Source: a virus
DNA length: 46,577 nucleotides
Virus record (IMG/VR): IMGVR_UViG_3300032144_000020
Location: 1-46,577 of that record
Strand: one strand, 5' to 3'
The position numbers and the translations under genes were made by a program. Shown here in pieces: positions 2,447 to 44,201 of the stretch. The stretch's first letter is position 1. Each line of letters opens with the position of its first letter. The notes under the pieces were generated by a model, which saw nothing but the letters and a program-made list of their open reading frames with translations, was not told the origin of the DNA and searched no databases.

Positions 2447-3670
2447 CTATCTAGTAAGGCCAGCGCTGACCGGGGAGAGGCGGTCGGCGAGCGGGATGAG
2501 GGCCTCGTGGCGTGTGTCGAGGCCGATCATGGAGGCGAGGTCCTTGATCGCCGGGGTGTTGCAGCCACGGACGTTGAGGCGGCCTGATGGGATGTCCGTG
2601 AGCTGGAGCTGTAGGCGCTCCCCGTAGACGGCGCAGCCCTCGATGTTGAGCGTGCGCGCCACCTTCTGCCCGCTCCCGAGCGAACCGACGCGGATGACCT
2701 GGGAGAGGTTCTCGTTCCCGGGGCCGGCCGCGAAGCCGCAGCCACGGATCAGGACGTGGCCGTTAGCGAACCCGCGCCCGACCTTCCCGTCCGTCGCCGA
2801 GAAGAAGTCTCCCCCCGAGTCGTCGATCATGATGGCCCTGGTGCGCTGGCTCGCTGGGATCATGGGCGGGCCCTCTAGCTGTCCGCCGCCCTGGAAGAGG
2901 CACCCCTGGACGATGATGTCGGAGCCGCCCCCCTGCACCACGAGGCCGCCGCCGCCCCGCCATGACCAGGGCTGATACCAGTCTCCGAGGCGACAGGCTG
3001 TGAGCCAGATACGGGCCCCGGGCACCCAGGCGGTCTCGGAGGGGGAGTTCCTGACCTTGCAGGACTCAGCCCCAGACGCCGGCACGGCCACGCGGTTCCA
3101 GCGGAGGCCGTCCTTGGCGAACCCGTGCCAGTAGGAGGCGTGCTCGGCCGAGAAGCGGGCGGAGATCGTGACGTCCTCCAGCCAGACGTCCGACTGGTAG
3201 CCGAAGAGGGGCCAGACGGTCCCGTGCTGCTGGTTAGGTAGCGTCCCGTCCGTCGTCACCTCGACCTGCTTCATGTGCAGGGCGAACTTGGGCGCGATCG
3301 GCTGGTCCTTGTGCTCCAGGCCGAACCAGATGCCCTGGCGGGCCCCGCAGAGGAGGGTCAGGTTCTCGAAGCGTACGATCCCGTTATGGCGGTCCACGAG
3401 GACGGCCTGGTCGCCAACCGGGCGGATTCTGGTCGCCAAGCGCCCAGCCCCGATGAACCGCACGCCGTCGAAGCCCTTGTCCAGCCACTCGGCCGAGGTG
3501 TACTTCCGGCGGCCTGTGCCGGCCGAGTAGTCGATGTCGAAGCCCTGGACGTCCCCAGCGGGGAGCTGGATGTCCATGAGCCGCGGAGCCGTCTGCATGG
3601 GTTCCATGCCGGCCTTGGGCGCCAAGGAGGCCGGCTGCTTCGCCGGGAAGAGGGTGTCGATCAGGCCCAT
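2447..3670 (-). CDS. Right-handed parallel beta-helix (pectate-lyase fold) protein, candidate polysaccharide depolymerase
   Basis: It has repeated short rungs with Gly/Cys turns (IVQGCLFQGGG, LIRGCGFAAGPG, NIEGCAVYG, NVRGCNT), which is typical of beta-helix glycanases and tailspikes. ATG 3670 has AGGAG 8 nt upstream. The longer track start at 3772 would overlap the divergent NeuB-like gene. Confidence 0.6.
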   Translation of the reverse strand: MGLIDTLFPAKQPASLAPKAGMEPMQTAPRLMDIQLPAGDVQGFDIDYSAGTGRRKYTSAEWLDKGFDGVRFIGAGRLATRIRPVGDQAVLVDRHNGIVRFENLTLLCGARQGIWFGLEHKDQPIAPKFALHMKQVEVTTDGTLPNQQHGTVWPLFGYQSDVWLEDVTISARFSAEHASYWHGFAKDGLRWNRVAVPASGAESCKVRNSPSETAWVPGARIWLTACRLGDWYQPWSWRGGGGLVVQGGGSDIIVQGCLFQGGGQLEGPPMIPASQRTRAIMIDDSGGDFFSATDGKVGRGFANGHVLIRGCGFAAGPGNENLSQVIRVGSLGSGQKVARTLNIEGCAVYGERLQLQLTDIPSGRLNVRGCNTPAIKDLASMIGLDTRHEALIPLADRLSPVSAGLTR

Positions 3671-3733
3671 GCTGAGTCTCCTGGGGTTGGCCGGCAGGGA
3701 GGCGAACCGCATGGTAGGCTTGCCCTTGAGACA

Positions 3734-4624
3734 ATGGAGACACGATTCGTTGCGGAAGTGGGGTCGAACCACAACGGGGACATCCGCCGGGCGCTGGCGC
3801 TCATCCGGGAGGCGAAGGCCGCCGGGTTCGATGCGGTGAAGTTCCAGATGTTCGAGGTGCGGAGGCTATTCCACTCCTCGGCGCTCGACGCACGCCCGGA
3901 GCTTCTCGGGCGCGAGAAGATGGAGCTTCCTTCATGGTGGCTCCCGGAGCTGTCGGCCCAAGCCTTCGACGCCGGCATCCGCTTGGGGCTCTCGGCATTC
4001 GACGTCTCCGCCGTGGCCGTGGCGCACGACTTCATCGACTTCTGGAAGATCAGCTCCTACGACCTGATGCGCACCGACATCCCCCGCGCCATCTCGCGGC
4101 AAGCGAAGAAGCCGGTCGTCGCGTCGACGGGGATGTCCTCGATGTCGAACTGCTTGGAGGCCCGCTACCGGCTCCACGCGCTCGGCCTCGTGGACCTGAC
4201 CTTCCTCCACTGCCTCTCCGCCTACCCCGCCGAACCGGACGCCTGCAACCTCGCCGCGATAGACGCGATGCAGAAGGAGCTTGGACACCCAGTCGGGTGG
4301 TCCGACCACACGGCCTCTGTCGAGGTGATCGAGCGCGCCGTCTGGCGCTGGCGCTCCGCCATGGTGGAGATGCATGTCGACCTCGACGACGGCGAGGGGA
4401 TGGAGTCCGGGGCTCACTGCTGGTCAATGCGCCGCGCTGCCTTCGTGATCGAGCGCACGCGCGGGACTGTCCCCGACATGCTGGCGCGCTCAAGCCCGAT
4501 CGACGGCGACGGGAAGAAGCGCCCGCAGCTCTGTGAACAGGCGGAGGCCGAGTGGTGCGCTGACGACAGCGACGGCCTACGTCCACTCAGGATGACCCGA
4601 GAGAAACTACATGCCCACCCCTAG
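3734..4624 (+). CDS. NeuB/PseI/LegI-family nonulosonic (sialic-type) acid synthase
   Basis: The motif order matches NeuB: FVAEVGSNHNGDIRRALALIREAKAAGFDAVKFQ, WKISSYDL, KKPVVASTGMSS, FLHCLSAYPAEPDACNLAAI, VGWSDHT, VEMHV. There is no C-terminal SAF domain. The track ORF beginning at 3275 is an implausible antisense extension. Confidence 0.85.
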   Translation: METRFVAEVGSNHNGDIRRALALIREAKAAGFDAVKFQMFEVRRLFHSSALDARPELLGREKMELPSWWLPELSAQAFDAGIRLGLSAFDVSAVAVAHDFIDFWKISSYDLMRTDIPRAISRQAKKPVVASTGMSSMSNCLEARYRLHALGLVDLTFLHCLSAYPAEPDACNLAAIDAMQKELGHPVGWSDHTASVEVIERAVWRWRSAMVEMHVDLDDGEGMESGAHCWSMRRAAFVIERTRGTVPDMLARSSPIDGDGKKRPQLCEQAEAEWCADDSDGLRPLRMTREKLHAHP

Positions 4625-5243
4625 CGATCTGCACATCTTCGTCACCGGCATCGTCGGCCGCGCCATGGGCTCGGGCAAGTTCGGCGTCGGCGAGATAGAG
4701 CCGCTGGCCAAGCAGGCCAAGGAAGCCTTCGTGGCCGTCTTCGGCCCCGTGGAGCAGGGCCCGGCGCAGCAGCCATCGCCCCAGCGGGCCTACCAGCCCG
4801 CCCCGTCGCGTGTGGGCGCTGCCGAGCACATCGGGGCGACGGCCAGAGATGTCGTCTCCAAGGCCGGAGTGACGAGCGGCGGATCTATCCCGCCCGCGTC
4901 CGAGGCGTCGTTCCACATCTGGAGCGGCCACAAGTGCTACTACGGCAAGCGCGACTGGGAGGCTTTCGGGAAGCCCTGGCCCGAGGTGACCTGGGAGGAA
5001 CTCCTGGAGCACGCCTCCGGCTCCGACGAGAAGGCGCGCACGAAGGCGAACAAGGCCCTCAAGGTGATGGCCGACAGCGAGCCCCAGGAGGGCGAGTGGG
5101 CTCAGCGCAGCCGCGCCAAGATCGCCAACGCGAAGTGCGTCCTCATCATGGCGCGGAAGCTCATGGAGGCCCCCAAGGAGAGGGCCCCTGTGGAGCGCGA
5201 CTACGCCGAGGACGGCGGCGACTCGAACGAGACGCCTTTCTAG
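4611..5243 (+). CDS. Hypothetical protein, 210 aa
   Basis: Track ORF with natural composition. It overlaps the synthase gene by 14 nt. No motif recognised. Confidence 0.55.
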   Translation: MPTPSDLHIFVTGIVGRAMGSGKFGVGEIEPLAKQAKEAFVAVFGPVEQGPAQQPSPQRAYQPAPSRVGAAEHIGATARDVVSKAGVTSGGSIPPASEASFHIWSGHKCYYGKRDWEAFGKPWPEVTWEELLEHASGSDEKARTKANKALKVMADSEPQEGEWAQRSRAKIANAKCVLIMARKLMEAPKERAPVERDYAEDGGDSNETPF

Positions 5244-20918: not shown

Positions 20919-22802
20919 TTATTTCCTCCCTGAGGGGGTGCTGTGGGTCTCTTTGCTGGTCCCCGCCGAGCGAGGTCCTTTGTTTTGTTGCGCCCTGGAG
21001 TTCTTCGAGAAGCCGGCCGGCGTCTCCGAGGCCTTGAGGCTCGGGGCGGGCTGGATGTCGGCTCCTAGGCGCGGCTGCGGCGTCTGCTGGCCAGGGATCC
21101 CCTGGAGGTTCATCTGGGTCATCATCTGGCCGAAGACCATCGCCTTGTTCACGTTGACGACCTTCGCCCAGGAGGGGTCGCGCCACTGCTCAGCCTTCTT
21201 GGCGAGCACCTGCGCCCACTCGATCCACGGCATCTGCGGGATCATGGGGCCGAAGGTGCCGATCCAGGCGTCCTGCTGGGCGCTGATCTCCGACTCCAGC
21301 AGCTCGGAGGTGAACCGCATAGACGTCGGCTCGATCTCCATGTCCATGTCCTCCAGGAGGTCGGCGTACTTGAGCCCGCCCTCCAGGACCGGGTACTCGA
21401 TCGGCTCGCCCGTCGTCGGGTCGAGGAAGACCCCCTCCGCCTCAGGCCCGAGAGCGATAGAGGCCTTGGGGTGCATGGCGAGGATCCAGGCCTCCTTGGC
21501 GGCGATCGGCTTCACGACGCTCGTCGTGAACTTCTCGGCCATGAATCCCATACGCTTACCGCTCGACATCTGGGCGATCGAGGCCTCCGTCGCCGTCGAG
21601 GCGCCTGTCGCCTGCCCCATCGCGGCTTCCGTGAGGCCGGACGCCTGCTCTAGGTTCTGGGAGAGCACCTGGAGCATCGTGAGGTGCTGGGGCGTGAGGC
21701 CGCCCTTCTCGATCTCGATGATGGCCTTGGAGACGTCCTCGGCGAGCCCCTCAACCTCGAAGACGTCCTGATCCTCGAACTCCTTGATCTTCTCCGCGAT
21801 GTCCGCCGACGCCGACGAGGAGACAGCCACCCCGCGCTTGTAGCGGCGGATGGCCTCCACGGCCGCGTTCCAGACAGAGGCGTGGATCTCTGCCTGCGCT
21901 GCGGTGGCGGTGAGCGGTGAGAGCAGCACTGCGCGGTCGGGGACGTAGAGGTAGCCAGAGAACGTGTACGGGCCGTCGCGCGGCCCCCAGTAGGGGCGCG
22001 GCTCGCGGATCCAGTCCATCGAGCCCTTGGCGACCGTGAAGATGGTCCCGTGGTAGCCGCGCTCGGACGTCGGGATGAACTTCTTCCCGGCCTCCGTCTT
22101 CGCAGACTCCAGCTCCGCCTCGGGCACCCAGAACTCCCAGTACTCCACCTCGTCGCGGTCGTAGGTCGCCTCCAGCTTCTCGCCGCGCAGCTCACGGTCG
22201 GGCTTGCCTGAGAGGCCCTCGATCGCCTCGACGTTCCAGCCGCGTCCGGGGAACTCCTTCGCCTCCTTCAGGAGCGAGTCCTGGTCGCGGATGATCCGGT
22301 GGCCCTGGTAGCGGGCCTCCGAATGCTGGAGGGCTACCGGGTCCCAGAGGTAGTCCATGAGGGACATCCTCTTCGTCGTCGGTCGGTAGGGCGGGTCCTC
22401 GCGTTCCAGGAGCCCGGCCACTGGGCGGGCGGTCGTGAACGCCACACACCACTTGAAGGCCCAGTCAGTCGCTAGCTGTTCGATCGTGCGCTTGGCGTTG
22501 GTCAGCTCGAAGTTCCGGTTGACTCCGAACTCGACCGCCTTGCAGATGGCGGCGGCGCTACCCTGGCGCGGCGTCTTCGTACGGATGCGGGGGTTCCCCG
22601 AGGCGAGGATCGGCAGGAAGAGGGACAGCCACTTGTAAGCGTGGTTGTCGAAGTCAATGTCCGTGCGCCCGGTCGTCCGGTAGCCGGGGCCGACGTACCG
22701 CTGGATGGAGTCGTAGTAGGACTCTCCCAGGAACCTGTCCCGGTGTTCCCTGGCCTTGCGGCCCTCCATGTCGAGCCCCTGAGCGGTGAGGTCCAGCGCC
22801 AC
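20919..22802 (-). CDS. Portal protein candidate, 627 aa
   Basis: Its size and its position upstream of scaffold and capsid support the call. It has an acidic core and a Gln/Pro/Ser-rich C-terminal tail. The start is GTG 22802 or ATG 22769 (AGGGG 7 nt upstream). Confidence 0.7.
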   Translation of the reverse strand: MALDLTAQGLDMEGRKAREHRDRFLGESYYDSIQRYVGPGYRTTGRTDIDFDNHAYKWLSLFLPILASGNPRIRTKTPRQGSAAAICKAVEFGVNRNFELTNAKRTIEQLATDWAFKWCVAFTTARPVAGLLEREDPPYRPTTKRMSLMDYLWDPVALQHSEARYQGHRIIRDQDSLLKEAKEFPGRGWNVEAIEGLSGKPDRELRGEKLEATYDRDEVEYWEFWVPEAELESAKTEAGKKFIPTSERGYHGTIFTVAKGSMDWIREPRPYWGPRDGPYTFSGYLYVPDRAVLLSPLTATAAQAEIHASVWNAAVEAIRRYKRGVAVSSSASADIAEKIKEFEDQDVFEVEGLAEDVSKAIIEIEKGGLTPQHLTMLQVLSQNLEQASGLTEAAMGQATGASTATEASIAQMSSGKRMGFMAEKFTTSVVKPIAAKEAWILAMHPKASIALGPEAEGVFLDPTTGEPIEYPVLEGGLKYADLLEDMDMEIEPTSMRFTSELLESEISAQQDAWIGTFGPMIPQMPWIEWAQVLAKKAEQWRDPSWAKVVNVNKAMVFGQMMTQMNLQGIPGQQTPQPRLGADIQPAPSLKASETPAGFSKNSRAQQNKGPRSAGTSKETHSTPSGRK

Positions 22803-22835: not shown

Positions 22836-23384
22836 CTACTTTGTGACAAAGCGGCTGCGAGCCCTGGCTAGGTCCTCGGCCGTGTTCACCATGATCAGGT
22901 CGTCGGGAACGAGCGGGATGTTCACAGCGTGAGCCTTGAACCAGTCGTGGCCTGCGTGCTCATCGACGCCGCCGAGCGAGAGGCCGCAGAGCCTCCAGAT
23001 CTCCTGGCCTCCCCCGTGGAGCGCGCTTGGAACAAAGACGGGCGAGACGTGCTCGGCTGCCTGCTGGATCCACTTCGGCTCCAGGAATGGCGAGTCGCCA
23101 CAGACGCGGATCATCTTGTCGGCCCCCGTGGCGTCGAGGAGCGCCAGGTAGCGGGCGAGGGTGTTCTCCTCTGGTCCGCGCAGGAACGGGATCCGCTTCT
23201 GGCGCAGGAACCAGGCTAGCTCGTCGTCTCGGGGCGTGTCGGGGATGAGGACGAAGCGCTCGTAGGCGTCGCCACAGGCCTCCAGGACGCGCTCCAGGAG
23301 GGTCTTGCCGCAGATGGGCATGAGGACCTTCGCGGGGAGCCGCGTGGATCCTAGGCGAGCCTGGACGCCTACAACGGTCCTCAC
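22836..23384 (-). CDS. SpsF/NeuA/PseF-type cytidylyltransferase (CMP-sugar synthetase family), 182 aa
   Basis: VVGVQARLGSTRLPAKVLMPICGKTLLERV is the hallmark ARxGSxRLPxKxL motif of CTP_transf_3 enzymes, and IRVCGDSPFLEP follows. The GTG at 23384 overlaps the upstream stop (GTGA). The track N-extension was rejected. Confidence 0.8.
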   Translation of the reverse strand: MRTVVGVQARLGSTRLPAKVLMPICGKTLLERVLEACGDAYERFVLIPDTPRDDELAWFLRQKRIPFLRGPEENTLARYLALLDATGADKMIRVCGDSPFLEPKWIQQAAEHVSPVFVPSALHGGGQEIWRLCGLSLGGVDEHAGHDWFKAHAVNIPLVPDDLIMVNTAEDLARARSRFVTK

Positions 23385-24130
23385 GCCGTGATCGCCTTCG
23401 GGGAGCGCCACTCGAACTCGCACCCGACGAGCTTCGCGCGGGCCTCCAGCTCCTTCAGGTGCCGGCGCTCGTGCGCCCAGCGCTTGAACTTGCCGGGGTT
23501 CCCCTTGGCGAGCAGTTCGTTGAGCATCACCTGGAGGTTGTCCCGCATGACCTCGTATGTCTTGTTCTTGCCCCCCGAGGCGTTGAGCTGCTTCTGGGCC
23601 GAGGAGAGCTGGCGCTTGTACTGCTCCAGCTCGCTCTGGTGCATCTCGCACTCCTCCTCCGTCAGGCCTGGGGCCCAGGACCCCATCATGTCGGCGCAGA
23701 GGACGCGCACGCGCTCGGGGCGGAAGAGCATGATCCGCTCCAGCGCCATGAGGAGCGCGAAGCCGTGCCGGCGCGTCGTCGGGTCTTCTGTGTCCACCGT
23801 TCCCGTAGGCGTCGTCCGGACCCCTATGGAGGCCGGCAGGAAGGGTTCCCACAGCGTCACGAAGTCGAGGAGCTGCAAGACGCCGCCCTCACGCAGTAGG
23901 TTCGAGCGCGGGCACCACACCTGGAGCGGGGGCGTCAGGTACTTCTCCAGCTTGAGGTTGGGAACGACGTGGGAGGGCGGGTCCGCGAACATGGCGAAGT
24001 CCACGCCGATCCCCTTGTCGGTCACGTCGATCGCGCGGTTGATCGTGACGACCGGGGCCTCCTCTATGAGGTCGAGCTGCGTCAGGTGCTCACGGGATGG
24101 GCCACCGGAGATGACGTTCCACTTCTTCAC
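23381..24130 (-). CDS. DUF115/Maf-like putative glycosyl (nonulosonate) transferase, paralog B, 249 aa
   Basis: WNVISGGPSREH..VVTINRAIDV..VDFAMFADPP..RVLCADMMGSW..RWAHERRHL is a paralog of 1388..2026. The GTG at 24130 overlaps the upstream stop (GTGA). Confidence 0.5.
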   Translation of the reverse strand: MKKWNVISGGPSREHLTQLDLIEEAPVVTINRAIDVTDKGIGVDFAMFADPPSHVVPNLKLEKYLTPPLQVWCPRSNLLREGGVLQLLDFVTLWEPFLPASIGVRTTPTGTVDTEDPTTRRHGFALLMALERIMLFRPERVRVLCADMMGSWAPGLTEEECEMHQSELEQYKRQLSSAQKQLNASGGKNKTYEVMRDNLQVMLNELLAKGNPGKFKRWAHERRHLKELEARAKLVGCEFEWRSPKAITA

Positions 24131-24396
24131 GGCTTGGCGTCGTACCCCTTCCGGAACCAGCGGTTGGCGAACTTCAGGAACTCGTGCGGGCCGTAGGCCT
24201 TGCCCATACGAGCGACCTGGGAGGCCTCCGCGATCATCTCGTCGCGGCACTTGGCTAGCGCAGCCTGGAGGCCAACGGGGGCCGTGCGCTGGCGCTGGTG
24301 CGGGGCCTGGGGGTGGGCGGTCGGACAATCGACGACGATAGGCTCTTCGGGCACTGGCTCTTCCTCTTCCTCAGGAAACAGGGGCTCGCTGCTCAT
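24127..24396 (-). CDS. Hypothetical acidic protein, 89 aa
   Basis: It begins at ATG 24396 (MSSEPLFPEEEEEPVPEEP...) and overlaps the dehydratase 3-prime end by 26 nt. No motif recognised. Confidence 0.45.
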   Translation of the reverse strand: MSSEPLFPEEEEEPVPEEPIVVDCPTAHPQAPHQRQRTAPVGLQAALAKCRDEMIAEASQVARMGKAYGPHEFLKFANRWFRKGYDAKP

Positions 24397-25276
24397 TACT
24401 CGTGTACCTCCACTGGCGGGCCGTAGAGCGCGGCCCGTGCGGTCGGATGATGAAGTAGCTCTCGCGCTCCTCGACCATCTGGCTCTCGTTTCCAGAGATG
24501 AGCGTCTCGTGGACCTTCTCCCCCACCGGCATCTCCTCCATCGCGGGCTCGGCGTCGGGGAGGATCGACTTGGCGAAGGCGTAGGCGGACGAGGCTGGGA
24601 GCTTCGGCACGAAGATCTCCCCGCCCTCCATGTCCGCGAGGCGCGCGAGCACGAAGGAGGCGGCGTCCTCGGCTGAGAGCCAGAAGCGCGTGCTCTCCAT
24701 GCTGCGGAGCGGGAAGGTCTTGGCACCCTTCTCCTTCAGCGTCCGCAGCGTCTCCAGGAAGCTGCCGCGCGAGCCCAGCACGTTCCCGTAACGGACGCAG
24801 GATAACTTCGTGCGCCCGATGTTGGCGTTGGAGGCGATGAACAGGCGCTCCATGCAGAGCTTGGTGGCCCCGTAGAGCGTCGTCGGCTCGACGGCCTTGT
24901 CTGTGGAGACGCCCATGACGCGCTCCACCCCCTCCTCGGCTGCGGCGAGGGCGACGTTCTGGGAGCCGAGGACGTTCGTCCTGACGTGCTCGAACGGGTT
25001 GGCCTCCCCGCTGGGGACGTGCTTGAGCGCTGCGGCCTGGACCACCGTATCGACGCCACGCATGGCGAGGCGCAGGCGGTCGTAGTCGCGCACGTCTCCG
25101 ATGAACCAGCGCAGGCGCTTGTCGTCGCCCAGCGCGCGCCGCATGTGGAACTGCTTGTGCTCGTCGCGGCTGAAGACGGCGAGGCGCTCAACCTCGCCGG
25201 TGGCGAGCGCGGCGGGGACGAAGGCGCTGCCGAACGTACCTGTCCCACCCAAAATCAGGACGTTACTCAAGTCCAC
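24371..25276 (-). CDS. pseB: UDP-GlcNAc 4,6-dehydratase, PseB/FlaA1 (CapD) family
   Basis: VLILGGTGTFGS, RWFIGDVRDYDRL, AAALKHVPSGEANPFEHVRTNVLGSQNV, STDKAVEPTTLYGATKLCMERLF, VRYGNVLGSRGS, TRFWLSAEDAASFV and GGEIFVPKLP are colinear with H. pylori FlaA1 as I remember it. The start is GTG 25276 or TTG 25270 (TTGA overlap). Confidence 0.85.
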   Translation of the reverse strand: MDLSNVLILGGTGTFGSAFVPAALATGEVERLAVFSRDEHKQFHMRRALGDDKRLRWFIGDVRDYDRLRLAMRGVDTVVQAAALKHVPSGEANPFEHVRTNVLGSQNVALAAAEEGVERVMGVSTDKAVEPTTLYGATKLCMERLFIASNANIGRTKLSCVRYGNVLGSRGSFLETLRTLKEKGAKTFPLRSMESTRFWLSAEDAASFVLARLADMEGGEIFVPKLPASSAYAFAKSILPDAEPAMEEMPVGEKVHETLISGNESQMVEERESYFIIRPHGPRSTARQWRYTSNEQRAPVS

Positions 25277-25887
25277 TCTTTCTCTGAGAGATTCGGGTAC
25301 TCCCCACGCTGCGGCTCGTTGTACTTCTTCGCCCACGAGAGGAGCCAGAGCCCACGTGCGGCGTCGGGCGGGGCAAGGTGCATATGCCAACCCCGCCCAA
25401 AGTTCTCCTGCTCGTCGAGCGATTTCCCGGGCTCGCGGCCATCGAAGCGCATCCTGCGCAGGCGGTCGGCCACCCAGGCGTCGTCGGTGAGGATCGCTCC
25501 CCCGCGCCCGATAGGGAGGGTCTTCGCTGCCTGGAACGAGAGGCAGACGAACTTCCCGGGCGTGTCGGCGTACATGTGCTCGTAGAACCACTTCGCCGAA
25601 TCGACGACGCCGATGGGTTCGATCTCGTAGCGGCCGAGCCACTCCTTGTCCGACCACTCGATGATGAGCCCCGCGTTGCGTGCCGCCTGGGCTACTCCGA
25701 CGTAGGTGTGCTTCGGTAGCGTCACGCGCCGGTCCCAGTCGTCGTCGAGCTTCGCCTCCTGAAAGCACAGGAACAGGGCGTTGGTGCAGGAGTCCACGGC
25801 GACGACGTGGGGGGCGCCCGTGTACGCCTCCAGGGCGCGCTCGAAGGCCTCCACGACTCGGTAGGGCTCTCGCGTGTCGAGCATCAT
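25267..25887 (-). CDS. DegT/DnrJ/EryC1 (PseC-like) aminotransferase-family protein, short form, 206 aa
   Basis: VEAFERALEAYTGAPHVVAVDSCTNALFL, TLPKHTYVGVAQAARNAGL and CLSFQAAKTLPIGRGGAILTDD (candidate PLP lysine) are present. It is about 150 aa shorter than canonical members. The ATG at 25887 overlaps the terL stop (ATGA). Confidence 0.65.
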   Translation of the reverse strand: MMLDTREPYRVVEAFERALEAYTGAPHVVAVDSCTNALFLCFQEAKLDDDWDRRVTLPKHTYVGVAQAARNAGLIIEWSDKEWLGRYEIEPIGVVDSAKWFYEHMYADTPGKFVCLSFQAAKTLPIGRGGAILTDDAWVADRLRRMRFDGREPGKSLDEQENFGRGWHMHLAPPDAARGLWLLSWAKKYNEPQRGEYPNLSEKEWT

Positions 25888-27443
25888 TGCCGGCGGTACT
25901 TCCCGCGCCGCTCTTCCTCGCGGCGCTTCTCGCGGCGGTGCCGCGCCCACTCGTCTCCGTACGTCTCCGCCGAGGCCTTCGTCGTGTCCACGAGGTCGCG
26001 CCCGAAGCCTCGGGCGAAGTTCAGGACCTCATCGTACCGGGCCGCGTCGAGGGCGTGGTCGGCGCACTTGTCGTCGGGGATCCCCTCGGGGCGGTCTTGT
26101 CCCTGGCGCACCAGGAAGCTCCAGGACTCGACCTCCTCCTCGTAGCAGGTCGGCTGCCCCTGGCGGCGCAGCTCCTCGTCCAGGCCCTCCGGGAAGGCGT
26201 CCTTGAGGAGATAGGTGCGCTGGTGGCCGGAGGGGGAGCCCAGGCCCTGGCGCATGAGGTCGATCTGGGAGCCCTTGGTGCGGTCGCGCTGGTGGCCGCC
26301 GCCGATAGGGGGGCACTTCACGGCGATGGCGCCCGACGTCGAGGCGAACTTCCGGAGCTTCAGGTTGAAGTAGCGGATGGCCTCGGGGTTCGAGCCGTCG
26401 CAGGAGAAGTACTTCACCCCGTACTTCCCGGCCCAGGCCTCAGCGAGTTCGCCCCACTCCTCGCGCTGCCACTTGAGTTTGACGACCTCGGCCACGCGGA
26501 AGCGGCGGATCTTCTCGTGCCAGCGCGGGCTGTCGTAGGCCCAGAGGGACATGGCGCCCGGGTCCGGAGACCACCCCCAGTCGACGCCGGCCGTGAAGTA
26601 GAAGACGCGGATCGGGTTCTCGACCCCTGGCAGCGTGATGAGCCATCCGCGCTGCTCGTCGTACTCCATCGACCCGGCGACGACGTGCTTCTCCGGGTCC
26701 CAGTTCTCCAGGATCAGGTTGTCCGCTGCGGCCCACTGGCCGAGGTAGAAGCGCTTGTAGCGGACCCCGGTCAGCGTCGCCTTGAGGCCCTCGACGTACT
26801 CGAAGCCCTCTTTCGTCCAGGTGCCGTTCGGGTAGTCGCCGTCGTAGAAGAGCGGGTTGTCGTAGTGCCGGAAGCGGAGGCGGCGGCGGCCTAGCTTCGA
26901 CTTCAGGTTGAAGCGCTTGTTGATCCAGTGGCTTGGGGCCGCTGGGTTCACGTCGGCGATGATCTGGTGGTAGGGCGTCTTGAAGGACGAGAGGCGCGTC
27001 GTGAGCGTCTCCCAGGCGCTCTCCTTGGTCTCCTCGGCCTGGACGACGTAGATCCGGTCCCACTTGGTCGAGAGGATCGGGGAGGCCGTGTCCTGCATCG
27101 ACTCCAGGCCGGCGAAGAAGACCTCTGAGCCGTTGTCGTAGCGGTAGAGGTCCTGGTGGTCGCGGGAGGCGGTCTTGGAGACCGCGGGGTGGCCGGTCCA
27201 CAGGATCTCGTCGCGCCAGTCCTTCAGGATCGACTCGTTGAGGGATTTGCGCGTCTGGCGAGTGACGAGTTGGCGGGAGCCGTTGAAGCCGCGGGCGCAG
27301 GCGTCGATCTTGAAGAGGAGCGACCAGGACTTCGCGGAGCGCGTAGGACCCTCGCACAGGACCTCACGCTCGCGGCAGAGCATGAGGGTCGCGGCTGGGC
27401 CGCGGAGCACCCTGCGGCGGTCTACGGTCTCCGGCGTGCTCAC
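25884..27443 (-). CDS. terL: Terminase large subunit
   Basis: It has a Walker A-like VLCEGPTRSAKS, the Walker B/catalytic RIYVVQAEE, and the nuclease motifs FTAGVDWGWS and CADHALDAARY. The GTG at 27443 overlaps the upstream stop (GTGA). The track N-extension was rejected. Confidence 0.85.
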   Translation of the reverse strand: MSTPETVDRRRVLRGPAATLMLCREREVLCEGPTRSAKSWSLLFKIDACARGFNGSRQLVTRQTRKSLNESILKDWRDEILWTGHPAVSKTASRDHQDLYRYDNGSEVFFAGLESMQDTASPILSTKWDRIYVVQAEETKESAWETLTTRLSSFKTPYHQIIADVNPAAPSHWINKRFNLKSKLGRRRLRFRHYDNPLFYDGDYPNGTWTKEGFEYVEGLKATLTGVRYKRFYLGQWAAADNLILENWDPEKHVVAGSMEYDEQRGWLITLPGVENPIRVFYFTAGVDWGWSPDPGAMSLWAYDSPRWHEKIRRFRVAEVVKLKWQREEWGELAEAWAGKYGVKYFSCDGSNPEAIRYFNLKLRKFASTSGAIAVKCPPIGGGHQRDRTKGSQIDLMRQGLGSPSGHQRTYLLKDAFPEGLDEELRRQGQPTCYEEEVESWSFLVRQGQDRPEGIPDDKCADHALDAARYDEVLNFARGFGRDLVDTTKASAETYGDEWARHRREKRREEERRGKYRRQ

Positions 27444-27718
27444 TCGGCCACCTTCGGTCCGCCCCAGCATTCGTCTGAGACGATCTGATATCGGATGTGG
27501 CCGATCATCCGCTCGCGCTCGTCGCGCCGCGTCCATCTGGAGAGCCACTGCCACCACATGTCTGGCATGTCCGGAGGATCGCCGGCCAAGATCTCGAACC
27601 TGTGCCCGCACGGCCGCAGTTCGTCCGATGGGTCCGCTGGCCTGTACCACGAGACGGCCGCGCAGACGCGGCAGGCGCTCGGGTAGGCTCCGATCTCCCA
27701 GGGCTCCGGCGTGCTCAC
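27440..27718 (-). CDS. Small Cys/His (zinc-ribbon-like) protein, 92 aa
   Basis: GTG 27718 begins VSTPEPWEIGAYPSACRVCAAVSWYRPADPSDELRPCGH, a CxxC...CxH pattern. The first 15 nt of the gene are identical to the first 15 nt of terL. Confidence 0.5.
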   Translation of the reverse strand: MSTPEPWEIGAYPSACRVCAAVSWYRPADPSDELRPCGHRFEILAGDPPDMPDMWWQWLSRWTRRDERERMIGHIRYQIVSDECWGGPKVAE

Positions 27719-31087: not shown

Positions 31088-31105
31088 AGGGGTACGTTTC
31101 AGGCA

Positions 31106-33429: not shown

Positions 33430-34200
33430 GTGGCGGCGGCTCACGATAGGCTGGCGCTCGTGACCGATACGCTCGACGTCTACGAGGTCTGGCCGGACTA
33501 CTTCGAGGTCCAGCGCAGGGGCCTCTGGTACTACGAGAGGCTCTGGGCGGTCCTCCTGCGGGAGCTAGAGCGCCGGACGACCGGCAGGCGCCTGACAGAG
33601 TTCGGTAGCGGGCCTGGCTTCTTGCTGAAGCTCGCCGAGAGACGGATCTGGGATGCCCGTGGGATAGAGCCATCGCTTGTCGCCAGGGCTCACGCCGAGG
33701 CCATGGGGTGCCTATGCTTGGACAAACCGCCATACCTCTGGACAGACGACGCCATCATCTCCACCGAGGTCCTGGAGCACGTCATAGACCCCCTCGCCAC
33801 CCTGAAGGAGTGGAGCGAGGTCCTCTTCGACGGAGGCCTCTTGGCCCTCTCCGTCCCGAACGACAACAACCCACTCCAGCGCCTCTTCGGCCGCCTCCTG
33901 GCCCCGCGCGGAAACGAGCGAGGCGGGCTCCTCCAGTGCGGCGACAGGTCGCGCCCGTGGGTCCACCCGACCCACCTCCACTACTTCAACCCGAAGTCGC
34001 TGAAAGCCCTCGTCGAGTCGGCGGGGTTCGAGGTCGTGTGGCAGAGGACGAGCTTCCCAGTGGAGCTTCTCATGGTCCTCCCGATCCCGAGGCGCTGGGC
34101 GTGGAAGCTCTCGCGCCTGTGGCCCGCCCCTCCGTTCCTGTGGCGTTTCCATGTGGGCCGCCACTGTCTCCTAGTCGCCAGGAAGATAGACCAGATATGA
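33430..34200 (+). CDS. Class I SAM-dependent methyltransferase
   Basis: LTEFGSGPGFLLKLA (motif I), AIISTEVLEHVIDP and GGLLALSVPN support the call. The start is GTG 33430 or GTG 33460. Confidence 0.75.
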   Translation: MAAAHDRLALVTDTLDVYEVWPDYFEVQRRGLWYYERLWAVLLRELERRTTGRRLTEFGSGPGFLLKLAERRIWDARGIEPSLVARAHAEAMGCLCLDKPPYLWTDDAIISTEVLEHVIDPLATLKEWSEVLFDGGLLALSVPNDNNPLQRLFGRLLAPRGNERGGLLQCGDRSRPWVHPTHLHYFNPKSLKALVESAGFEVVWQRTSFPVELLMVLPIPRRWAWKLSRLWPAPPFLWRFHVGRHCLLVARKIDQI

Positions 34201-34913
34201 AGATCAAGGACCTCGCCGTCGAGCGCCTGAAGCTGGAGGAACTCCTGGAGATCCCCCCTGCGCCGGGGCACGAGCGATACCTGCACCTGCTCTGCGGGTC
34301 TGGCGAAGTCGAGGTTGGCGACCTCTTCCACGGCCCTTGGTGGAGGAAGTCCGTCTTCGAGCGCCCCGAGCCTGGGATCTACGTCCCCTCCGGAGAGGCC
34401 ATCAAGTTCGCGCCCAACGGGTCGATGGACGTCCTAGTCGTCAGTTCCCCTGCGGGGCAATGGCCCGACCCGACCCTGGTCGTCACCCACAAGGTCCACG
34501 AGATCGGGTGGGGGCACCACAAGCGGACTGTCTACGAGATCCTCGGCGGTGAAGGGCCGGCGCTGAGGATCCGACTCGGGGAGACACACAACGTCCCGGG
34601 GGGCTGGTCCTCCTGGCCGCCGCACAGATTCGACGCCGACCTCTCCATGGCCTCGGAGTTCGAGGAGGCGTTCCTGCCGTTCATGCGCCCGAAGGACGGG
34701 TTTGCGCTCATGCGCCGCAAGGGTCGATGGCAGGACGGGTCCGAAGTCGATGACGCCGTGGCGCTAACGACTGGCGTCATGGTTCCTGTCCCGCTCGGGA
34801 GCCACCCTATCGTCGCCGGCCCGGAGACGTCGCTCGTGTACGTGTGGGCGTACCTCTCGCCGGAGCCCAAGGTCTACGCGAAGTGGGCCGAGGATGCGGG
34901 GTGCTACAAGTGA
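34197..34913 (+). CDS. KduI/IolB-family cupin (5-deoxy-glucuronate isomerase-like)
   Basis: KSVFERPEPGIYVP, GGWSSWPPHRFD, EEAFLPFMRPKDGFALMRR and VPVPLGSHPIVAGPETSLVYVWAYL are colinear with B. subtilis IolB motifs (SVFERKP, GNWSSYPPHKHD, GYHPV...YYLNVMAG) as I remember them. ATGA overlap start. Confidence 0.7.
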   Translation: MKIKDLAVERLKLEELLEIPPAPGHERYLHLLCGSGEVEVGDLFHGPWWRKSVFERPEPGIYVPSGEAIKFAPNGSMDVLVVSSPAGQWPDPTLVVTHKVHEIGWGHHKRTVYEILGGEGPALRIRLGETHNVPGGWSSWPPHRFDADLSMASEFEEAFLPFMRPKDGFALMRRKGRWQDGSEVDDAVALTTGVMVPVPLGSHPIVAGPETSLVYVWAYLSPEPKVYAKWAEDAGCYK

Positions 34914-35563
34914 CCATCCTCGTCACGGGCCACGAGGGGGACATCGGCGGCCTAGTAGCTGCGCACTTGGCGCGCGGAGATCAGGCAGTGATGGGAGTCA
35001 GGACGGACGCGAAGCTCGACAGCGCGCACCGCTACGCGGGCCTCGTCGTCTGCCACGGGGCTCCTGGCTGCATCAAGCCGTCCGTGGACCTCACGGATGT
35101 GGAGTTCCAGAAGATCATCGACGTCGATCTCGTCGGGACGTTCAAGATCTGCCGTGAGGCTGGCCGTGCCATGATCGCCCACGGCAACGGCGGGGCCATC
35201 GTGATCGTCTCGTCCATCCACGCCATCGCCGCCTACCCACAGCGCGCGGCGTACGCAGCGGCCAAGGCGGGCGTCGTTGGCCTAATGCGAGCCCTGGCTG
35301 TCGAGTGGGCGCGCCACGGGGTGCGCGTGAACGCAGTGCTACCAGGCCAGGTCATGGCGACTCGCCGCACCGCGAAGCTGACGGACGCCGGCGAATACAA
35401 GGCAATGCAGGATAGGTCGCCCAGCGGCCTGCTCGCCTCGCGGCTGGGAGTCCTCAGGGCGATCGAGTACCTCCTGAGCGCGCCAGACGTCACAGGGCAC
35501 GCCCTCGTCGTCGATGGGGGCTGGACAGCAAGTGGGTGGTACAAGAGCCATGAGGACGCGTAG
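34910..35563 (+). CDS. Short-chain dehydrogenase/reductase (SDR)
   Basis: ILVTGHEGDIGG, IVIVSSIH, YAAAKAG (YxxxK) and VNAVLPG support the call. GTGA overlap start. Confidence 0.8.
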   Translation: MTILVTGHEGDIGGLVAAHLARGDQAVMGVRTDAKLDSAHRYAGLVVCHGAPGCIKPSVDLTDVEFQKIIDVDLVGTFKICREAGRAMIAHGNGGAIVIVSSIHAIAAYPQRAAYAAAKAGVVGLMRALAVEWARHGVRVNAVLPGQVMATRRTAKLTDAGEYKAMQDRSPSGLLASRLGVLRAIEYLLSAPDVTGHALVVDGGWTASGWYKSHEDA

Positions 35564-36815
35564 CGAGATCCTGAGAGACCTTCGAGCGGCCCGTCAGCGG
35601 AACATCGCCGTGTACGCACGGATGGCTGAGGAGGTACCGAAGGCAGAGCTTCTTGGGTGGAGGGCTAGGAAGCCGGAAGACCCCGACGTGACCATGCTGA
35701 TCGTGGAGAAGTGCCTGGATCACTCCCCGGCCTTGGCCAGCCGCGCCATCGCAGAGGTCAACGAGAACGACGAGGAGATCACACGCCTAAGCCGCGAGCT
35801 GGAGCGTGCCACAAGGCATTACGTCTCCCCTCCAGAGCCCCAGACGACGAAGAGCGCGGTCCTCCTTCCTGGAGGAGGGATCCTGCACGCCTACGCCGCC
35901 AGGGAGGCGCTGGCGCTTGGCCTAGTCCCTGTCGTCACCGACAAGGACAAGGACTGCCCGTGCGCCAAGATCCAGGGAGTCGAGTTCCACGAGATCGACT
36001 GCTACGACACGGAGTCCCACGTCGCGCTCGCCGCGAAGCTCAAGGGCCGGCTCATCGGGGCCTTCTGTGGCGGGGCGGACACACATGTCCAGGTGGCGGC
36101 CGTCCACGAGGCAATGGGCTGGGAGGGGCGCTGGGTCTCCAGGAAGACGGCGACCATATGCAAGGACAAGGAGCAGGCGAAGGACGCGCTGCTCGCCGCA
36201 GCGGTTCCTACGGCGGCCTACAGGATGGAGCCGCCATGCATCTGCAAGCCACGCGTTGGCTCCGGATCGCGCGGCGTGAAGCGCCTTCTCATCAGAAGCG
36301 AGGCCAATAGGGCCTGCGGCAACTACCCGGATGCCCTACACGAAGAACTCCTGGAAGGCCCCGAGCAGTCGGTGGAGATCCTGCTGAGGCCCGGAGCTGG
36401 GCCCCTCTACCGCGTCAACATCGTGGACAGGCACTTCGTCTGGGTGGACGACCAGCCCCTAGAGGTTGGGCACACCAACCCGACGAGGCTCGACGCGAAG
36501 ACTCAGGGCGAGATCTACGCCCTCTGCTACGCCGCCGCAGAGGCCGTGGGCGCCACGGTCGGCTTCTTCAAGTGCGACACCATCCTGACCAAGGACGGGC
36601 CCAAGGTCCTGGAGTGCTCCCCTAGGCTCTCAGGAGGCTTTGACTCCCAGATCTCTACCCCGGCGTCGTCGGGAAGGAACTTGCTCAGGTACGGCCTCCA
36701 GCTCGCCTGCGGCCTACCCACGGAGGCGAAGCTCCTAGACCGCCGCTGGGACGAGCGCGTGACCGTCATCCACCGCCCTCACCTCGCGACACCCGACCTC
36801 TTCCGTGGCAGATAA
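35550..36815 (+). CDS. ATP-grasp enzyme with about 100-aa helical N-terminal extension
   Basis: CICKPRVGSGSRGV, EELLEGPEQSVEIL and FFKCDTILTKDGPKVLECSPRLSGG support the call. It starts at ATG 35550 and overlaps the SDR end by 14 nt. Confidence 0.7.
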   Translation: MRTRSEILRDLRAARQRNIAVYARMAEEVPKAELLGWRARKPEDPDVTMLIVEKCLDHSPALASRAIAEVNENDEEITRLSRELERATRHYVSPPEPQTTKSAVLLPGGGILHAYAAREALALGLVPVVTDKDKDCPCAKIQGVEFHEIDCYDTESHVALAAKLKGRLIGAFCGGADTHVQVAAVHEAMGWEGRWVSRKTATICKDKEQAKDALLAAAVPTAAYRMEPPCICKPRVGSGSRGVKRLLIRSEANRACGNYPDALHEELLEGPEQSVEILLRPGAGPLYRVNIVDRHFVWVDDQPLEVGHTNPTRLDAKTQGEIYALCYAAAEAVGATVGFFKCDTILTKDGPKVLECSPRLSGGFDSQISTPASSGRNLLRYGLQLACGLPTEAKLLDRRWDERVTVIHRPHLATPDLFRGR

Positions 36816-39052: not shown

Positions 39053-39223
39053 ATGGAGTTCTTGATCGTGGAAGACCCGCTGCTGGGTGAGCAGGTGGTG
39101 TGCTGGGACTGTCTAGCCGCGTGGGCTGAGGCGGGCCTCGGCAAGGGGACCGTGATCCTAGGCGAGGGTGAGGGCTCGTGCTGCTACGGGCAGTGCCAGA
39201 AGCCGGCGGAGGTGCGCCAGTGA
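39053..39223 (+). CDS. Small Cys-rich protein, 56 aa
   Basis: Hand translation gives MEFLIVEDPLLGEQVVCWDCLAAWAEAGLGKGTVILGEGEGSCCYGQCQKPAEVRQ. AAGGAGGG lies 7 nt upstream. Its stop overlaps the next start (GTGA). It is below the track cutoff. Confidence 0.55.
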   Translation: MEFLIVEDPLLGEQVVCWDCLAAWAEAGLGKGTVILGEGEGSCCYGQCQKPAEVRQ

Positions 39224-42776: not shown

Positions 42777-44201
42777 CTATAGCACCGCACCCGCGACTGC
42801 CCCACCGGCGAGCGTAGTCCCGCGCACCGCCCCGGCCGTTAGCGTTGTCCCCTGGGGGAGGGCGTTTGTCACGATGGTATTCGTGAGGCTAGCCGTGGCG
42901 TCGAGGATGTCGACCGTCTCCTGGACGACGAGTGAGGTCGCCCCGCGGAGGATCGCCTCGTCGGTGATGTCCTCCGTCTCGATGTGGGTGCGGGCCTCAG
43001 CGGCGGCTCCAAGCGCGAAGACGAGCATCCGCCCGGCCGTTGCCGTCGTGAAGTTGAGGGTGAAGCCCGTGGCATCCAGGCTCACGACCGTCCCAACGAC
43101 CGCATCCGTGCCGGCGTCGTTCAAGACATGGATGGCCTTGGCGGAGGCGAAGAGGGAGGAGCTGGCCGGCGTTGAGACGCCCTCGTCCACGCGCTCCGAG
43201 GCCGCAAGCTGCTGGGTCCCGTCGAAGAGGAACACGCCCTCGGTGGCGACCGTGGCCCCGTCGACGATCGTGTCCTCCGAGGTGATGAGGGAGGCCACCC
43301 CGAAGACGACCCTAGGCTTGAGCCCAAGGCCCGTGAACGAGGCGTTGCCCGTGCCGCTCGGTAGCGTCTCGACCGCGATCTGGAAGGTGGCGTCGGTGTC
43401 GAGCTTCACGGCCATGCAGGGGCCGATGCCGCTGGCGCTCGTGAAGCCAGTGGACGTGATCGTGGCGACCGAGAGGCCGTCGAGGTCGATGCCGGTGTTC
43501 CCCGTCACCTCTAGGGCGCAGGAGCCGTTGCGGAGGATGCCGTCACAGTCAGACGGGTCGGAGAGGCGGTTCCACTCGGCACCCAGGACCGCCTGCTTGA
43601 TCGGGCTCTTGTCCACGACGAGGCCAAAGCCAGGAACGCCGTCGTTCGTGACGCCGCCTAGGTTGTTGCCCGTCGTCGGGTTGACGAAGATGAACGAGGG
43701 CCGGAACTCGCTTCCAACCGGACCCGTGGTCGTAGTGGTGCCGCCGGAGTCCACGATCCAGGAGTCCACGACGCCCGAGATGAGCAGCGCGAAGCCCTCG
43801 TAGGCCGCCGCCGGGGCCGTCACCCACTCGATCCTGACGCCGTTGGTCAGGGCCGCGTTGAACCGCGCCGCCGCCTCGATCGTGTTCCCCGTAGGGTCGA
43901 TCATGGAGATGCAGCGTCCTGCGGAGGAGGTCTGGCTCGTCCCCTTGTTGTGGAGCGACTGGAGGGAGGAAACTCCGCCGTTCCTGGCGCGATTGGAGAG
44001 CACCATGGCGTGCCCGCGGCTGTTGGCTGCCCCTCGAGAGAGCCTCGCCGTCGTGGCCGTCCCGGCCCCTCCAGAGCGCCCCGAGAGGAAGAAGATGGCG
44101 ACGCCGCCCGTGTCCCAGCCCGAGATGTCCGAGGACGTGATGTCCTGGGTCCCCGTGCTCGTCAGCGTCGTGAAGGGGACGATGGCGTAGCGGGTCGTCA
44201 C
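42777..44201 (-). CDS. Fibre/receptor-binding-like protein, paralog 2, 474 aa
   Basis: It has three internal modules, each opening with an (F/W/K)-P-x-x-x-F type strand (GGVAIFFLSG, FRPSFIFVNP, LKPRVVFGVA). Two ETE.ITD-type repeats follow. The Gly/Ala/Thr tail GTTLTAGAVRGTTLAGGAVAGAVL is shared with paralog 1. GTGA overlap start. Confidence 0.55.
   Translation of the reverse strand: MTTRYAIVPFTTLTSTGTQDITSSDISGWDTGGVAIFFLSGRSGGAGTATTARLSRGAANSRGHAMVLSNRARNGGVSSLQSLHNKGTSQTSSAGRCISMIDPTGNTIEAAARFNAALTNGVRIEWVTAPAAAYEGFALLISGVVDSWIVDSGGTTTTTGPVGSEFRPSFIFVNPTTGNNLGGVTNDGVPGFGLVVDKSPIKQAVLGAEWNRLSDPSDCDGILRNGSCALEVTGNTGIDLDGLSVATITSTGFTSASGIGPCMAVKLDTDATFQIAVETLPSGTGNASFTGLGLKPRVVFGVASLITSEDTIVDGATVATEGVFLFDGTQQLAASERVDEGVSTPASSSLFASAKAIHVLNDAGTDAVVGTVVSLDATGFTLNFTTATAGRMLVFALGAAAEARTHIETEDITDEAILRGATSLVVQETVDILDATASLTNTIVTNALPQGTTLTAGAVRGTTLAGGAVAGAVL

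Follow-up and report, generated by a model that had tools for sequence, protein, structure and literature searches.

A nonulosonic-acid gene set and candidate DUF115-fold transferases in the genome of a tailed phage

What use could a phage have for a sialic-acid-like sugar pathway encoded among the genes that package its DNA and build its head? The question is raised by a viral DNA of 46,577 nucleotides (IMG/VR record IMGVR_UViG_3300032144_000020; the whole stretch is hereafter the window), in which five open reading frames (ORFs) separate the gene for the large terminase subunit (terL) from that for the portal. The original prediction had assigned four of them to the synthesis and transfer of a nonulosonic acid, and had pointed to a synthase and a second transferase-like protein encoded elsewhere in the genome. 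The sugar gene set turned out to be larger than this, comprising about eight enzymes split over three places in the genome. Our best reading, to which we give a probability of roughly 45%, is that the phage makes a tailored sugar of the pseudaminic acid (Pse) type late, activates it with cytidine monophosphate (CMP), and transfers it to its own structural proteins. The candidates for the transfer are two small proteins, here called GPS1 and GPS2.

Sugar enzymes in and outside the late operon

The five ORFs between terL and the portal gene all lie on the minus strand at the positions first proposed, and all score as coding (log-likelihood ratios of 32-140) under a codon model trained on the structural genes. 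In the order of transcription, they encode a miniaturised DegT/PseC-like aminotransferase (25267..25887), a PseB/FlaA1-type 4,6-dehydratase of UDP-N-acetylglucosamine (UDP-GlcNAc; 24371..25276), an 89-aa protein with an acidic N-terminus, no family match and a positive coding score (orf89; 24127..24396), GPS1 (23381..24130) and a short cytidylyltransferase (22836..23384). The cassette is bounded upstream by terL (25884..27650, minus strand; PHROG terminase large subunit, 2.5e-11), which likely starts near 27443, and downstream by the portal gene (20919..22802, minus strand; weak PHROG portal match), whose ortholog in the related locus L008 gave a faint SU10_portal match. The 4-base overlaps listed earlier can be read directly from the sequence: ATGA at 25887-25884 contains the terL stop and the aminotransferase start, and GTGA joins orf89 to GPS1 (24130-24127) and GPS1 to the cytidylyltransferase gene (23384-23381). 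In addition, the aminotransferase stop (25267) overlaps the GTG start of the dehydratase gene (25276) by 10 nt, and the dehydratase stop (24371) overlaps the ATG start of orf89 (24396) by 26 nt. The cytidylyltransferase gene stops at 22836 and the portal gene starts with GTG at 22802. No minus-strand terminator-like site was found within the cassette. The cassette genes are thus stop/start coupled within the terL-portal operon, and these junctions bear out the claim that the sugar genes sit within the late structural operon.

Profile searches of each ORF against Pfam and NCBIfam upheld the dehydratase, aminotransferase, synthase and CMP-activation assignments, with all four proteins scoring under the equivalog cut-off of their own NCBIfam family. 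The 301-aa dehydratase (Pfam Polysacc_synt_2, 5.1e-70) appeared closest to PseB among the NCBIfam models compared, reaching 312 bits (2.8e-93) with TIGR03589 (PseB; equivalog cut-off 407.75) as against 188 bits with FnlA and 53 bits with LegB. The PseB motifs GGTGTFG, STDKA (TDK) and YGATK (YxxxK) are present in its translation. The aminotransferase, which presumably depends on pyridoxal phosphate (PLP), matched Pfam DegT_DnrJ_EryC1 in two stretches (1.5e-20), and its best NCBIfam model was PseC (TIGR03588), albeit at 50 bits against a cut-off of 423.5. It is not a full-length PseC, as its 206 aa compare with about 380 and some 150 residues are gone. The Schiff-base lysine is kept (SFQAAK aligned to the SFHPRK motif), as are the SxT motif and an aspartate (VVDSA), and the protein is of similar size in the relatives (201-206 aa, 47-53% identity).

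The cytidylyltransferase (182 aa) resembles CMP-ulosonic-acid synthetases. It passed the Pfam CTP_transf_3 cut-off (2.3e-16; 60.7 versus 22.6 bits) with the N-terminal half of the model only (positions 4-114 of 217), and its best NCBIfam models were KdsB subfamilies. Two bacterial clusters encode a similar protein after NeuB: in L015 it is the product of the ORF immediately following that gene (176 aa, 30% identity), and in L014 that of a CTP_transf_3 gene (33% identity).

The synthase of the NeuB/PseI family had been placed at 3734..4624 on the plus strand, and the 296-aa protein encoded there indeed matched Pfam NeuB (2.6e-37; 129 bits, cut-off 22.1). NCBIfam scores were 130 bits for NeuB_NnaB (cut-off 400) and 113 bits for PseI TIGR03586 (cut-off 340). 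The protein lacks a SAF domain and keeps the active-site motifs for the metal and phosphoenolpyruvate (PEP) in alignment with the structures 1vli and 6ncs (EVGSNH, KFQ, KISS, STG, LHC..YP, SDH and E.H). The motifs are common to the PseI structure 8h2c as well, and 6ncs is itself a solved 290-aa NeuB. The phage protein is ~45% identical to many bacterial NeuBs of 290-300 aa, one of which is encoded in an alphaproteobacterial flagellar cluster, between the flagellin/FlaF/FlbT genes and the gene for a tetratricopeptide repeat (TPR) protein; in general, the nearest cellular homologs lie in flagellar or polysaccharide clusters. The NeuB stop is overlapped by a 210-aa ORF without a family match (4611..5243, plus strand), which adjoins NeuB or GPS2 in L011, L023 and L024.

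The third place is a plus-strand block that had been overlooked. It encodes an S-adenosylmethionine (SAM) methyltransferase (33430..34200; Methyltransf_23, 2.9e-19), a KduI/IolB-family cupin (34197..34913; 1.4e-26), a short-chain dehydrogenase/reductase (SDR; 34910..35563; adh_short_C2, 8.6e-33) with a TGxxxGxG-like motif, ILVTGHEGDIGG, and an ATP-grasp ligase (35514..36815; ATP-grasp_3, 1e-8). The methyltransferase and cupin genes share ATGA (34197-34200), and the cupin and SDR genes share GTGA (34910-34913). We propose that these enzymes tailor the sugar. The same families accompany a short NeuB, PseB, DegT and CTP_transf_3 in three other clusters, whose proteins are 28-46% identical to those of the phage: L014 and L015 are bacterial, and L019 is a contig of 102 kb from the IMG/VR viral collection. 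For instance, the methyltransferase is 32-34% identical to those of L014 and L019, the SDR 32-37% identical to those of L015 and L019, and the ATP-grasp ligase 36% identical (1e-40) to the L014 ATP-grasp/LAL_C2 gene product and 28% to that of L015, while the cupin is matched by a KduI fragment in L014. Since the same families cluster in all three, the phage appears to carry a copy of a recurrent 'tailored nonulosonate' set. The ATP-grasp ligase is a candidate N-acylating enzyme, and a plausible stand-in for the N-acylation step of PseH.

GPS1 and GPS2 as minimal DUF115-fold proteins

GPS1 (249 aa) carries a helical-hairpin insert, which is missing from the 212-aa GPS2 (1388..2026, minus strand). 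Each consists of a single domain followed by a C-terminal helix. The second protein had been taken for a paralog of the first, and this proved sound: BLASTP aligned the two at 1e-7 with 26% identity over 195 aa. The paralogy rests on this match and on the two AlphaFold (AF2) models described below. As our alignment A1 has GPS2 as its last row, the A1 profile search and the hhalign comparison of A1 with A4 do not count as independent proof.

Neither protein matched Pfam, NCBIfam, PHROGs or PADLOC. The AF2 models were of good quality by the predicted local distance difference test (pLDDT 89.5 for GPS1 and 89.8 for GPS2), and the two independent models both show an MptE-like/sialyltransferase-like Rossmann fold. 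The top Foldseek match of GPS2 in the Protein Data Bank (PDB) was MptE, an archaeal 6-hydroxymethyl-7,8-dihydropterin pyrophosphokinase (HPPK; 8sd5, E 3.4e-4, template modelling (TM) score 0.41-0.46), followed by SteA, thiamin pyrophosphokinases (TPKs), ST8SiaIII (2.3e-3) and ST6GALNAC2 (TM 0.49). GPS1 matched TPKs, CstII/Cst-I and ST6GALNAC2 in the PDB, and, in BFVD, a DUF115 protein of the mimivirid ChoanoV1 together with three 'MptE-like' proteins of uncultured Caudovirales.

Forty-eight clusters are close to GPS1, and a search of 1.84 billion proteins with a GPS profile gave 81 representatives at E<1e-3. One of these, P0117, is a 1250-aa eukaryotic protein with saposin repeats and was rejected as a false positive. 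As far as searched, the family is small and phage-borne. G10, N31, D147 and W218 are invariant, and S12, M148, G150, R217 and E221 nearly so. Scanning 28 and then 57 members against Pfam gave coiled-coil noise only, apart from PF01973 (DUF115), the only family matched more than once (4 members). A chain of weak matches leads in the same direction. The GPS profile found P0078, P0097 and P0109 (6.5e-11 to 1e-5), three of these four members, which span positions 9-167 of the 171 of PF01973 (E 0.007-0.06); a profile of this subgroup found P0254 (1.3e-6) and P0256 (2.2e-5), which matched PF01973 at 1.6e-5 (25 bits) and 7.8e-5 (23 bits), respectively.

Because (i) the two proteins have no Pfam match, (ii) their models match the fold and (iii) the chain to PF01973 stays below threshold, we consider the GPS proteins to be very divergent minimal members of the MptE-like/DUF115 fold and not Maf orthologs. 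Maf proteins are large and multidomain, and this architecture is absent in both GPS1 and GPS2. The description 'Maf-like transferase' therefore stands at the level of fold or superfamily, as judged from the models, and falls at the level of the family, the proteins being under every curated PF01973 threshold and not Maf-sized. The structural comparison with known transferases that had been suggested was likewise divided, with CstII among the GPS1 matches and Maf absent from the best ones (see below). CMP-sugar transferases and pyrophosphokinases cannot be told apart by the modelled fold alone. Among the roughly 45 window ORFs scanned, no other glycosyltransferase family came up.

Relatives, neighbouring genes and candidate acceptors

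GPS1 lies immediately before or near the portal gene in ~20 distinct related loci, which fall into two clades. Members of clade I are at least 49% identical to GPS1 and carry the helical-hairpin insert, and those of clade II are 30-39% identical. Sugar genes adjoin GPS1 in eight of the nine clade-I loci and in none of the 11 clade-II loci. The window and L008-10 share the order terL-PseC-PseB-GPS1-cytidylyltransferase-portal, with orf89 before GPS1 in the window, and L001/2 have this order with one gene inserted. The order is terL-cytidylyltransferase-PseC-PseB-447-aa protein-GPS1-portal in L003/32 and terL-cytidylyltransferase-GPS1 in L031. PseB precedes GPS1 in L033, the cytidylyltransferase follows it in L034, and L037 has PseB-orf89-GPS1, its orf89 homolog occupying the same position as in the window (46% identity, 5e-17). 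Only L030 has no adjacent sugar gene. The gene inserted in L001 (5808-6149, between GPS1 and the cytidylyltransferase gene) encodes a YspA/cpYpsA-related SLOG protein (PF10686, 4.7e-17). The 447-aa protein of L003 (8703-10046), which stands at the position of orf89 between PseB and GPS1, has a weak Glyco_trans_1_2 match (E 0.0012), and may be either a hydrolase of the PseG type or a further transferase.

The neighbours of GPS1 in clade II are of other kinds, namely a p441-like protein (L004/38, L035 and L039), a formylglycine-type sulfatase between terL and GPS1 (L005) and a Methyltransf_24 protein (L006). In the window, p441 (441 aa; 2447..3772, minus strand; no Pfam, PHROG or PDB match) is a neighbour of GPS2. 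In L011 a homolog of p441 likewise stands upstream of GPS2, and in L004/L038, L035 and L039 homologs immediately precede GPS1. The terL products of two clade-II loci, L040 (6580-8994) and L041 (6800-9481), are 804 and 893 aa long, and each appears from its sequence to carry an intein-like insert in the C-terminal nuclease region.

Identities to the relatives are 55-74% for terL and 49-74% for the portal. Divergence of the cassette keeps pace with that of the structural genes (63-72% for PseB and 50-72% for GPS1 versus 66-74% for the portal), and the G+C content of the window, 67%, is uniform along the genome; the parallel divergence and the uniform G+C suggest that the cassette was inherited vertically. 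In clade I, GPS1 and the sugar genes are interlocked both physically and translationally. Taken over both clades, the distribution shows that the GPS proteins are core virion-module genes and the nonulosonate genes an accessory acquisition of one clade. As GPS genes also occur in relatives without nearby sugar genes, the phage pathway cannot be a strict requirement for their function. Distant GPS-like genes, again not accompanied by sugar genes, were found in the head/neck modules of four unrelated phage lineages: following the capsid gene in L013 (7272-7850), between the connector and head-closure genes in L017 (6582-7262), after the gene for a cement protein in L018 (8001-8498), and in an SU10-like head module in L016 (6769-7416).

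The synteny search that had been proposed found the arrangement kept in uncultured relatives and absent from GenBank phages. Megablast of the 20-28 kb region against 50,697 GenBank phage records gave no match, nor did tblastn of GPS1 and of the major capsid protein against GenBank phages, among which the terL product is ~28% identical to Streptomyces phage terminases. In the same 50,697 records, NeuB-like proteins occur in one (a 484-kb megaphage), PseB-like proteins in six and GPS-like proteins in none. With the search patterns used, only four NeuB-like loci were found in IMG/VR, and single-sequence scans of that collection with NeuB and with a 1150-aa protein gave no match. A search of 185,579 GTDB genomes found no GPS1 relative, and consequently we have no prophage or host clue.

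GPS2 has a constant neighbourhood of its own. Wherever it was found (L011/12, L023 and L024), it is followed by p193, a sulfatase gene and the genes for p620 and p474, which are rich in threonine and serine. In the window, the start of p193 (193 aa, 21% Thr/Ser; 834..1415, minus strand) overlaps the GPS2 stop by 28 nt. The protein is 48-63% identical to its syntenic counterparts in L011, L023 and L024, had no informative PDB match, and is a candidate acceptor. The fibre-like p620 and p474 (42777..46060, minus strand; 22% Thr/Ser, no Pfam match), which are syntenic in L011 and L023, are candidate acceptors as well. The C-terminal third of p620 (44198-46060, minus strand) has about nine 'ETExITD'-type repeats spaced by roughly 14-16 residues, and a Gly/Ala-rich stretch (GGAVAGAVL) close to the C-terminus is common to p620 and p474. 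PADLOC found nothing in the unknown proteins of the window.

The sulfatase gene reads across the contig junction (1-738 joined to 46064-46450, both on the minus strand), and the first 127 bases of the window equal the last 127 (1-127 and 46451-46577) in an exact terminal direct repeat. Owing to these two features, we regard the genome as complete and circularly assembled, at ~46,450 bp; the window corresponds to one JGI/Logan contig of 46,577 bp. Given its lipobox-like signal peptide, MLRALLSLLLIAC, and the formylglycine motif CSPTR, the protein is probably a secreted true sulfatase. We dropped the idea that it takes part in cytoplasmic glycosylation, as the lipobox-type signal peptide indicates that it probably acts outside the cytoplasm. 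In another locus, L029 (75-1324), a 172-aa ORF with a weak Sulfotransfer_1 match has its stop within the gene for the GPS family member P0070; this neighbour and the sulfatase neighbours hint at a link to sulfur chemistry.

The phage hallmarks of the genome are terL, the portal, an SU10-adaptor-like protein and the long minus-strand late operon. ARAGORN found no tRNA or tmRNA genes, and no polymerase, primase, helicase or integrase-like family was recognised among the window ORFs scanned. On the plus strand, we noticed a 613-aa protein (31042-32883) with a C-terminal DUF6745 domain (4.9e-21), that part being 60% identical to a protein of L041, and a 244-aa ORF (39178-39912) with a weak Peptidase_M10 (matrixin) match (E 3e-4) under the Pfam cut-off.

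Virion glycosylation, its rivals and known systems

The proposed route can be laid out step by step. By homology, the PseB-type enzyme would dehydrate UDP-GlcNAc, the miniaturised DegT/PseC-like enzyme would aminate the product, the SAF-less NeuB would condense the aminated sugar with PEP, and the short cytidylyltransferase would activate the resulting nonulosonate with cytidine triphosphate (CTP). The methyltransferase, cupin, SDR and ATP-grasp ligase of the second operon would tailor the sugar, again judging by homology. N-acylation may fall to the ATP-grasp ligase or to a host PseH, and the release of UDP to a host PseG or an unrecognised phage protein. GPS1 in the head module and GPS2 in the fibre module might then act as minimal transferases of the DUF115/sialyltransferase fold, O-linking the sugar to head proteins and to the Thr/Ser-rich p193, p620 and p474, and relatives without the pathway may take a host CMP-sugar as donor. 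We favour this virion self-glycosylation because of the late-operon position, the fold of the GPS proteins, the lack of another transferase, the association of the sugar genes with one GPS1 clade, and the Thr/Ser-rich neighbours.

Several observations weigh against it. Three of the enzymes (aminotransferase, synthase and cytidylyltransferase) are shortened, the aminotransferase having lost ~40 aa from its PLP domain and ~110 aa from its C-terminal domain. No PseH-like acetyltransferase (GNAT) or PseG-like hydrolase (GT-B) was detected among the scanned window ORFs, and the PseG-like 325-aa protein of L015 had no match in the window; the ORF scans and the comparison with L014 and L015 proteins thus agree with the original prediction, in which neither step could be found. 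GPS1 and GPS2 did not match PF01973 at E<=10 or E<=1, and the remote relatives reached 14-25 bits, below its gathering score of 34.6. The Foldseek probabilities went up to 1.0 with modest TM scores of 0.3-0.5; among solved structures, pyrophosphokinases matched best, and Maf was missing from the top 50 PDB matches. PDB sequence searches with GPS profiles gave no match, and hhalign of the GPS profile with the CstII sequence gave a probability of 4.9%, only the G-x-D-M / SGIDFY segment being aligned. A histidine serves as the catalytic base in GT29 and GT42, and the GPS alignments contain no invariant histidine. Finally, GPS1 and GPS2 are kept in relatives without detectable sugar genes (L006 and its genome L023, of which 31.8 of 41.7 kb were seen), and NeuB was not found on the incomplete 32.8-kb contig of a cassette-bearing relative (L003 and its genome L024).

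In a first alternative, the pathway works but its product goes to a host structure (flagellin, capsule or lipopolysaccharide) through host transferases, perhaps to sustain or alter host nonulosonate glycosylation or to mask receptors against superinfection. The GPS proteins would then have another activity, for example that of a pyrophosphokinase-like enzyme or an assembly factor, conserved in head and fibre modules. The flagellar and polysaccharide setting of the closest cellular NeuBs fits such a product, as do the MptE and TPK structures matched by the models and the finding that the sister clade and unrelated phages carry GPS genes with no sugar genes beside them; moreover, a phage that lacks PseH and PseG already depends on host enzymes. 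Nevertheless, GPS1 lies inside the cassette with 4-base overlaps on both sides, the hairpin-bearing GPS1 clade is the one with the sugar genes (8/9 versus 0/11 loci), and a product of the packaging/head operon appears shortly before lysis. In addition, no integrase-like family turned up, and a CMP-sugar pathway needs a transferase, for which the genome offered no other candidate. On these grounds we hold a host-directed product to be unlikely, while ranking it first among the alternatives.

A second alternative takes the shortened enzymes at face value: no longer canonical, they would make another product, such as a 4-amino-6-deoxy-hexosamine derivative, or nothing useful. The 206-aa DegT protein, some 150 residues short, the SAF-less NeuB and the 182-aa cytidylyltransferase are indeed far under the NCBIfam equivalog cut-offs, and the bacterial DegT proteins of L014 and L015 do not detect the phage aminotransferase (tblastn, 1e-2). 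Degenerate or redirected enzymes, however, are hard to square with short forms that are kept in length and sequence across relatives, with catalytic residues retained in NeuB and DegT, and with a codon usage that fits the phage structural genes; a short NeuB followed by a short cytidylyltransferase recurs in the bacterial cluster L015, and a NeuB of 290 aa has been solved (6ncs). We therefore judge this explanation improbable.

Least probable is a base hypermodification in which the sugar is attached to the DNA of the phage and GPS1 works beside the packaging machinery; we know of no nonulosonate-modified DNA. Phages with sugar-hypermodified thymidine do encode cytidylyltransferase-like and Kdo-transferase-like genes, and GPS1 does lie between terminase and portal, but in those phages such genes adjoin the DNA polymerase and not the head operon (PMC12686479), the window gave no match to a hydroxymethylase, DNA glycosyltransferase or polymerase family, and the second paralog, GPS2, is tied to fibre-like proteins.

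Virion self-glycosylation can be extended to a wider proposal, which is possible yet doubtful: that a group of tailed phages makes an N-acyl/methyl-tailored Pse-like sugar and O-links it to head and fibre proteins via unrecognised minimal (~200-250 aa) DUF115-fold transferases, of which distant members occur in the head/neck modules of many unrelated phages. These distant proteins may use host CMP-sugars such as CMP-Kdo. If the proposal is true, decoration of virions with nonulosonates or ulosonates would be a widespread, overlooked phage trait. Should virion self-glycosylation itself hold, this small tailed phage would carry both transferases and a near-autonomous route to a bacterial 'sialic-acid-like' sugar. 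Virus-encoded glycosylation would then extend from giant viruses and mycobacteriophages to nonulosonic acids, and the uncharacterised DUF115/MptE-like genes of phage head modules would have a testable explanation. A new minimal family of cytoplasmic O-glycosylation transferases and three miniaturised enzymes would be useful for glyco-engineering. A sugar coat could also influence how virions adsorb, how stable they are, which hosts they infect and how grazers or immune systems recognise them.

The supposition that the arrangement is undescribed in phages held: it was absent from the GenBank phages, and full-text literature searches turned up neither a nonulosonate pathway encoded by a phage nor a role for DUF115 proteins in modifying phage virions. 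Prophage enzymes that epimerise host pseudaminic acid are known (PMC12053666). Among the closest known systems is the O-glycosylation of flagellin by PseB/C/H/G/I/F with Maf in Campylobacter, Helicobacter and Aeromonas, and by FlmA/B/H/D, NeuB and FlmC with FlmG in Caulobacter (PMC7591256); according to work cited in that article, Maf enzymes O-link N-acetylneuraminic acid (Neu5Ac) or Kdo to Ser/Thr. The phage gene set follows the bacterial order of 4,6-dehydratase, aminotransferase, PEP condensation and CMP activation, and likewise has a cytoplasmic DUF115-fold transferase candidate and Thr/Ser-rich candidate acceptors. It differs in being encoded by a phage, within operons for packaging, head and fibres, in lacking PseH and PseG and in having three shortened enzymes; unlike Maf, the transferase candidates have 212-249 aa and miss PF01973, and no flagellin-like acceptor is present. 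With MptE, the founder of PF01973, and the TPKs, the GPS proteins share the N-terminal glycine-rich loop region, whereas they have an invariant residue set of their own (N31, D147, R217, W218 and E221) and the genome suggests no pterin or thiamin chemistry.

Among viruses, mycobacteriophages glycosylate capsid and tail-tube proteins (Freeman et al. 2023, Cell Host Microbe, as cited in PMC12619734); they encode glycosyltransferases, and the glycans sit on the C-termini of capsid and tail-tube subunits (PMC12619734, PMC11256854). Here, too, glycosylation genes stand among structural genes and the virion is the presumed target. Neither article mentions a phage-encoded sugar-synthesis pathway, whereas the present uncultured phage pairs an eight-enzyme nonulosonate pathway with DUF115-fold proteins. 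Giant viruses glycosylate autonomously, and a Kdo pathway is predicted for CroV and Fadolivirus among them; the review describing this (PMC9614988) makes no mention of pseudaminic or nonulosonic acids. These viruses infect eukaryotes, their genomes range from hundreds of kb to more than 1 Mb, and their sugar is Kdo instead of a nonulosonate. Nevertheless, they share with the phage a virus-encoded synthesis of an ulosonic acid, its CMP activation and tailoring methyltransferases, and the DUF115 protein of the mimivirid ChoanoV1 is among the best structural matches of GPS1.

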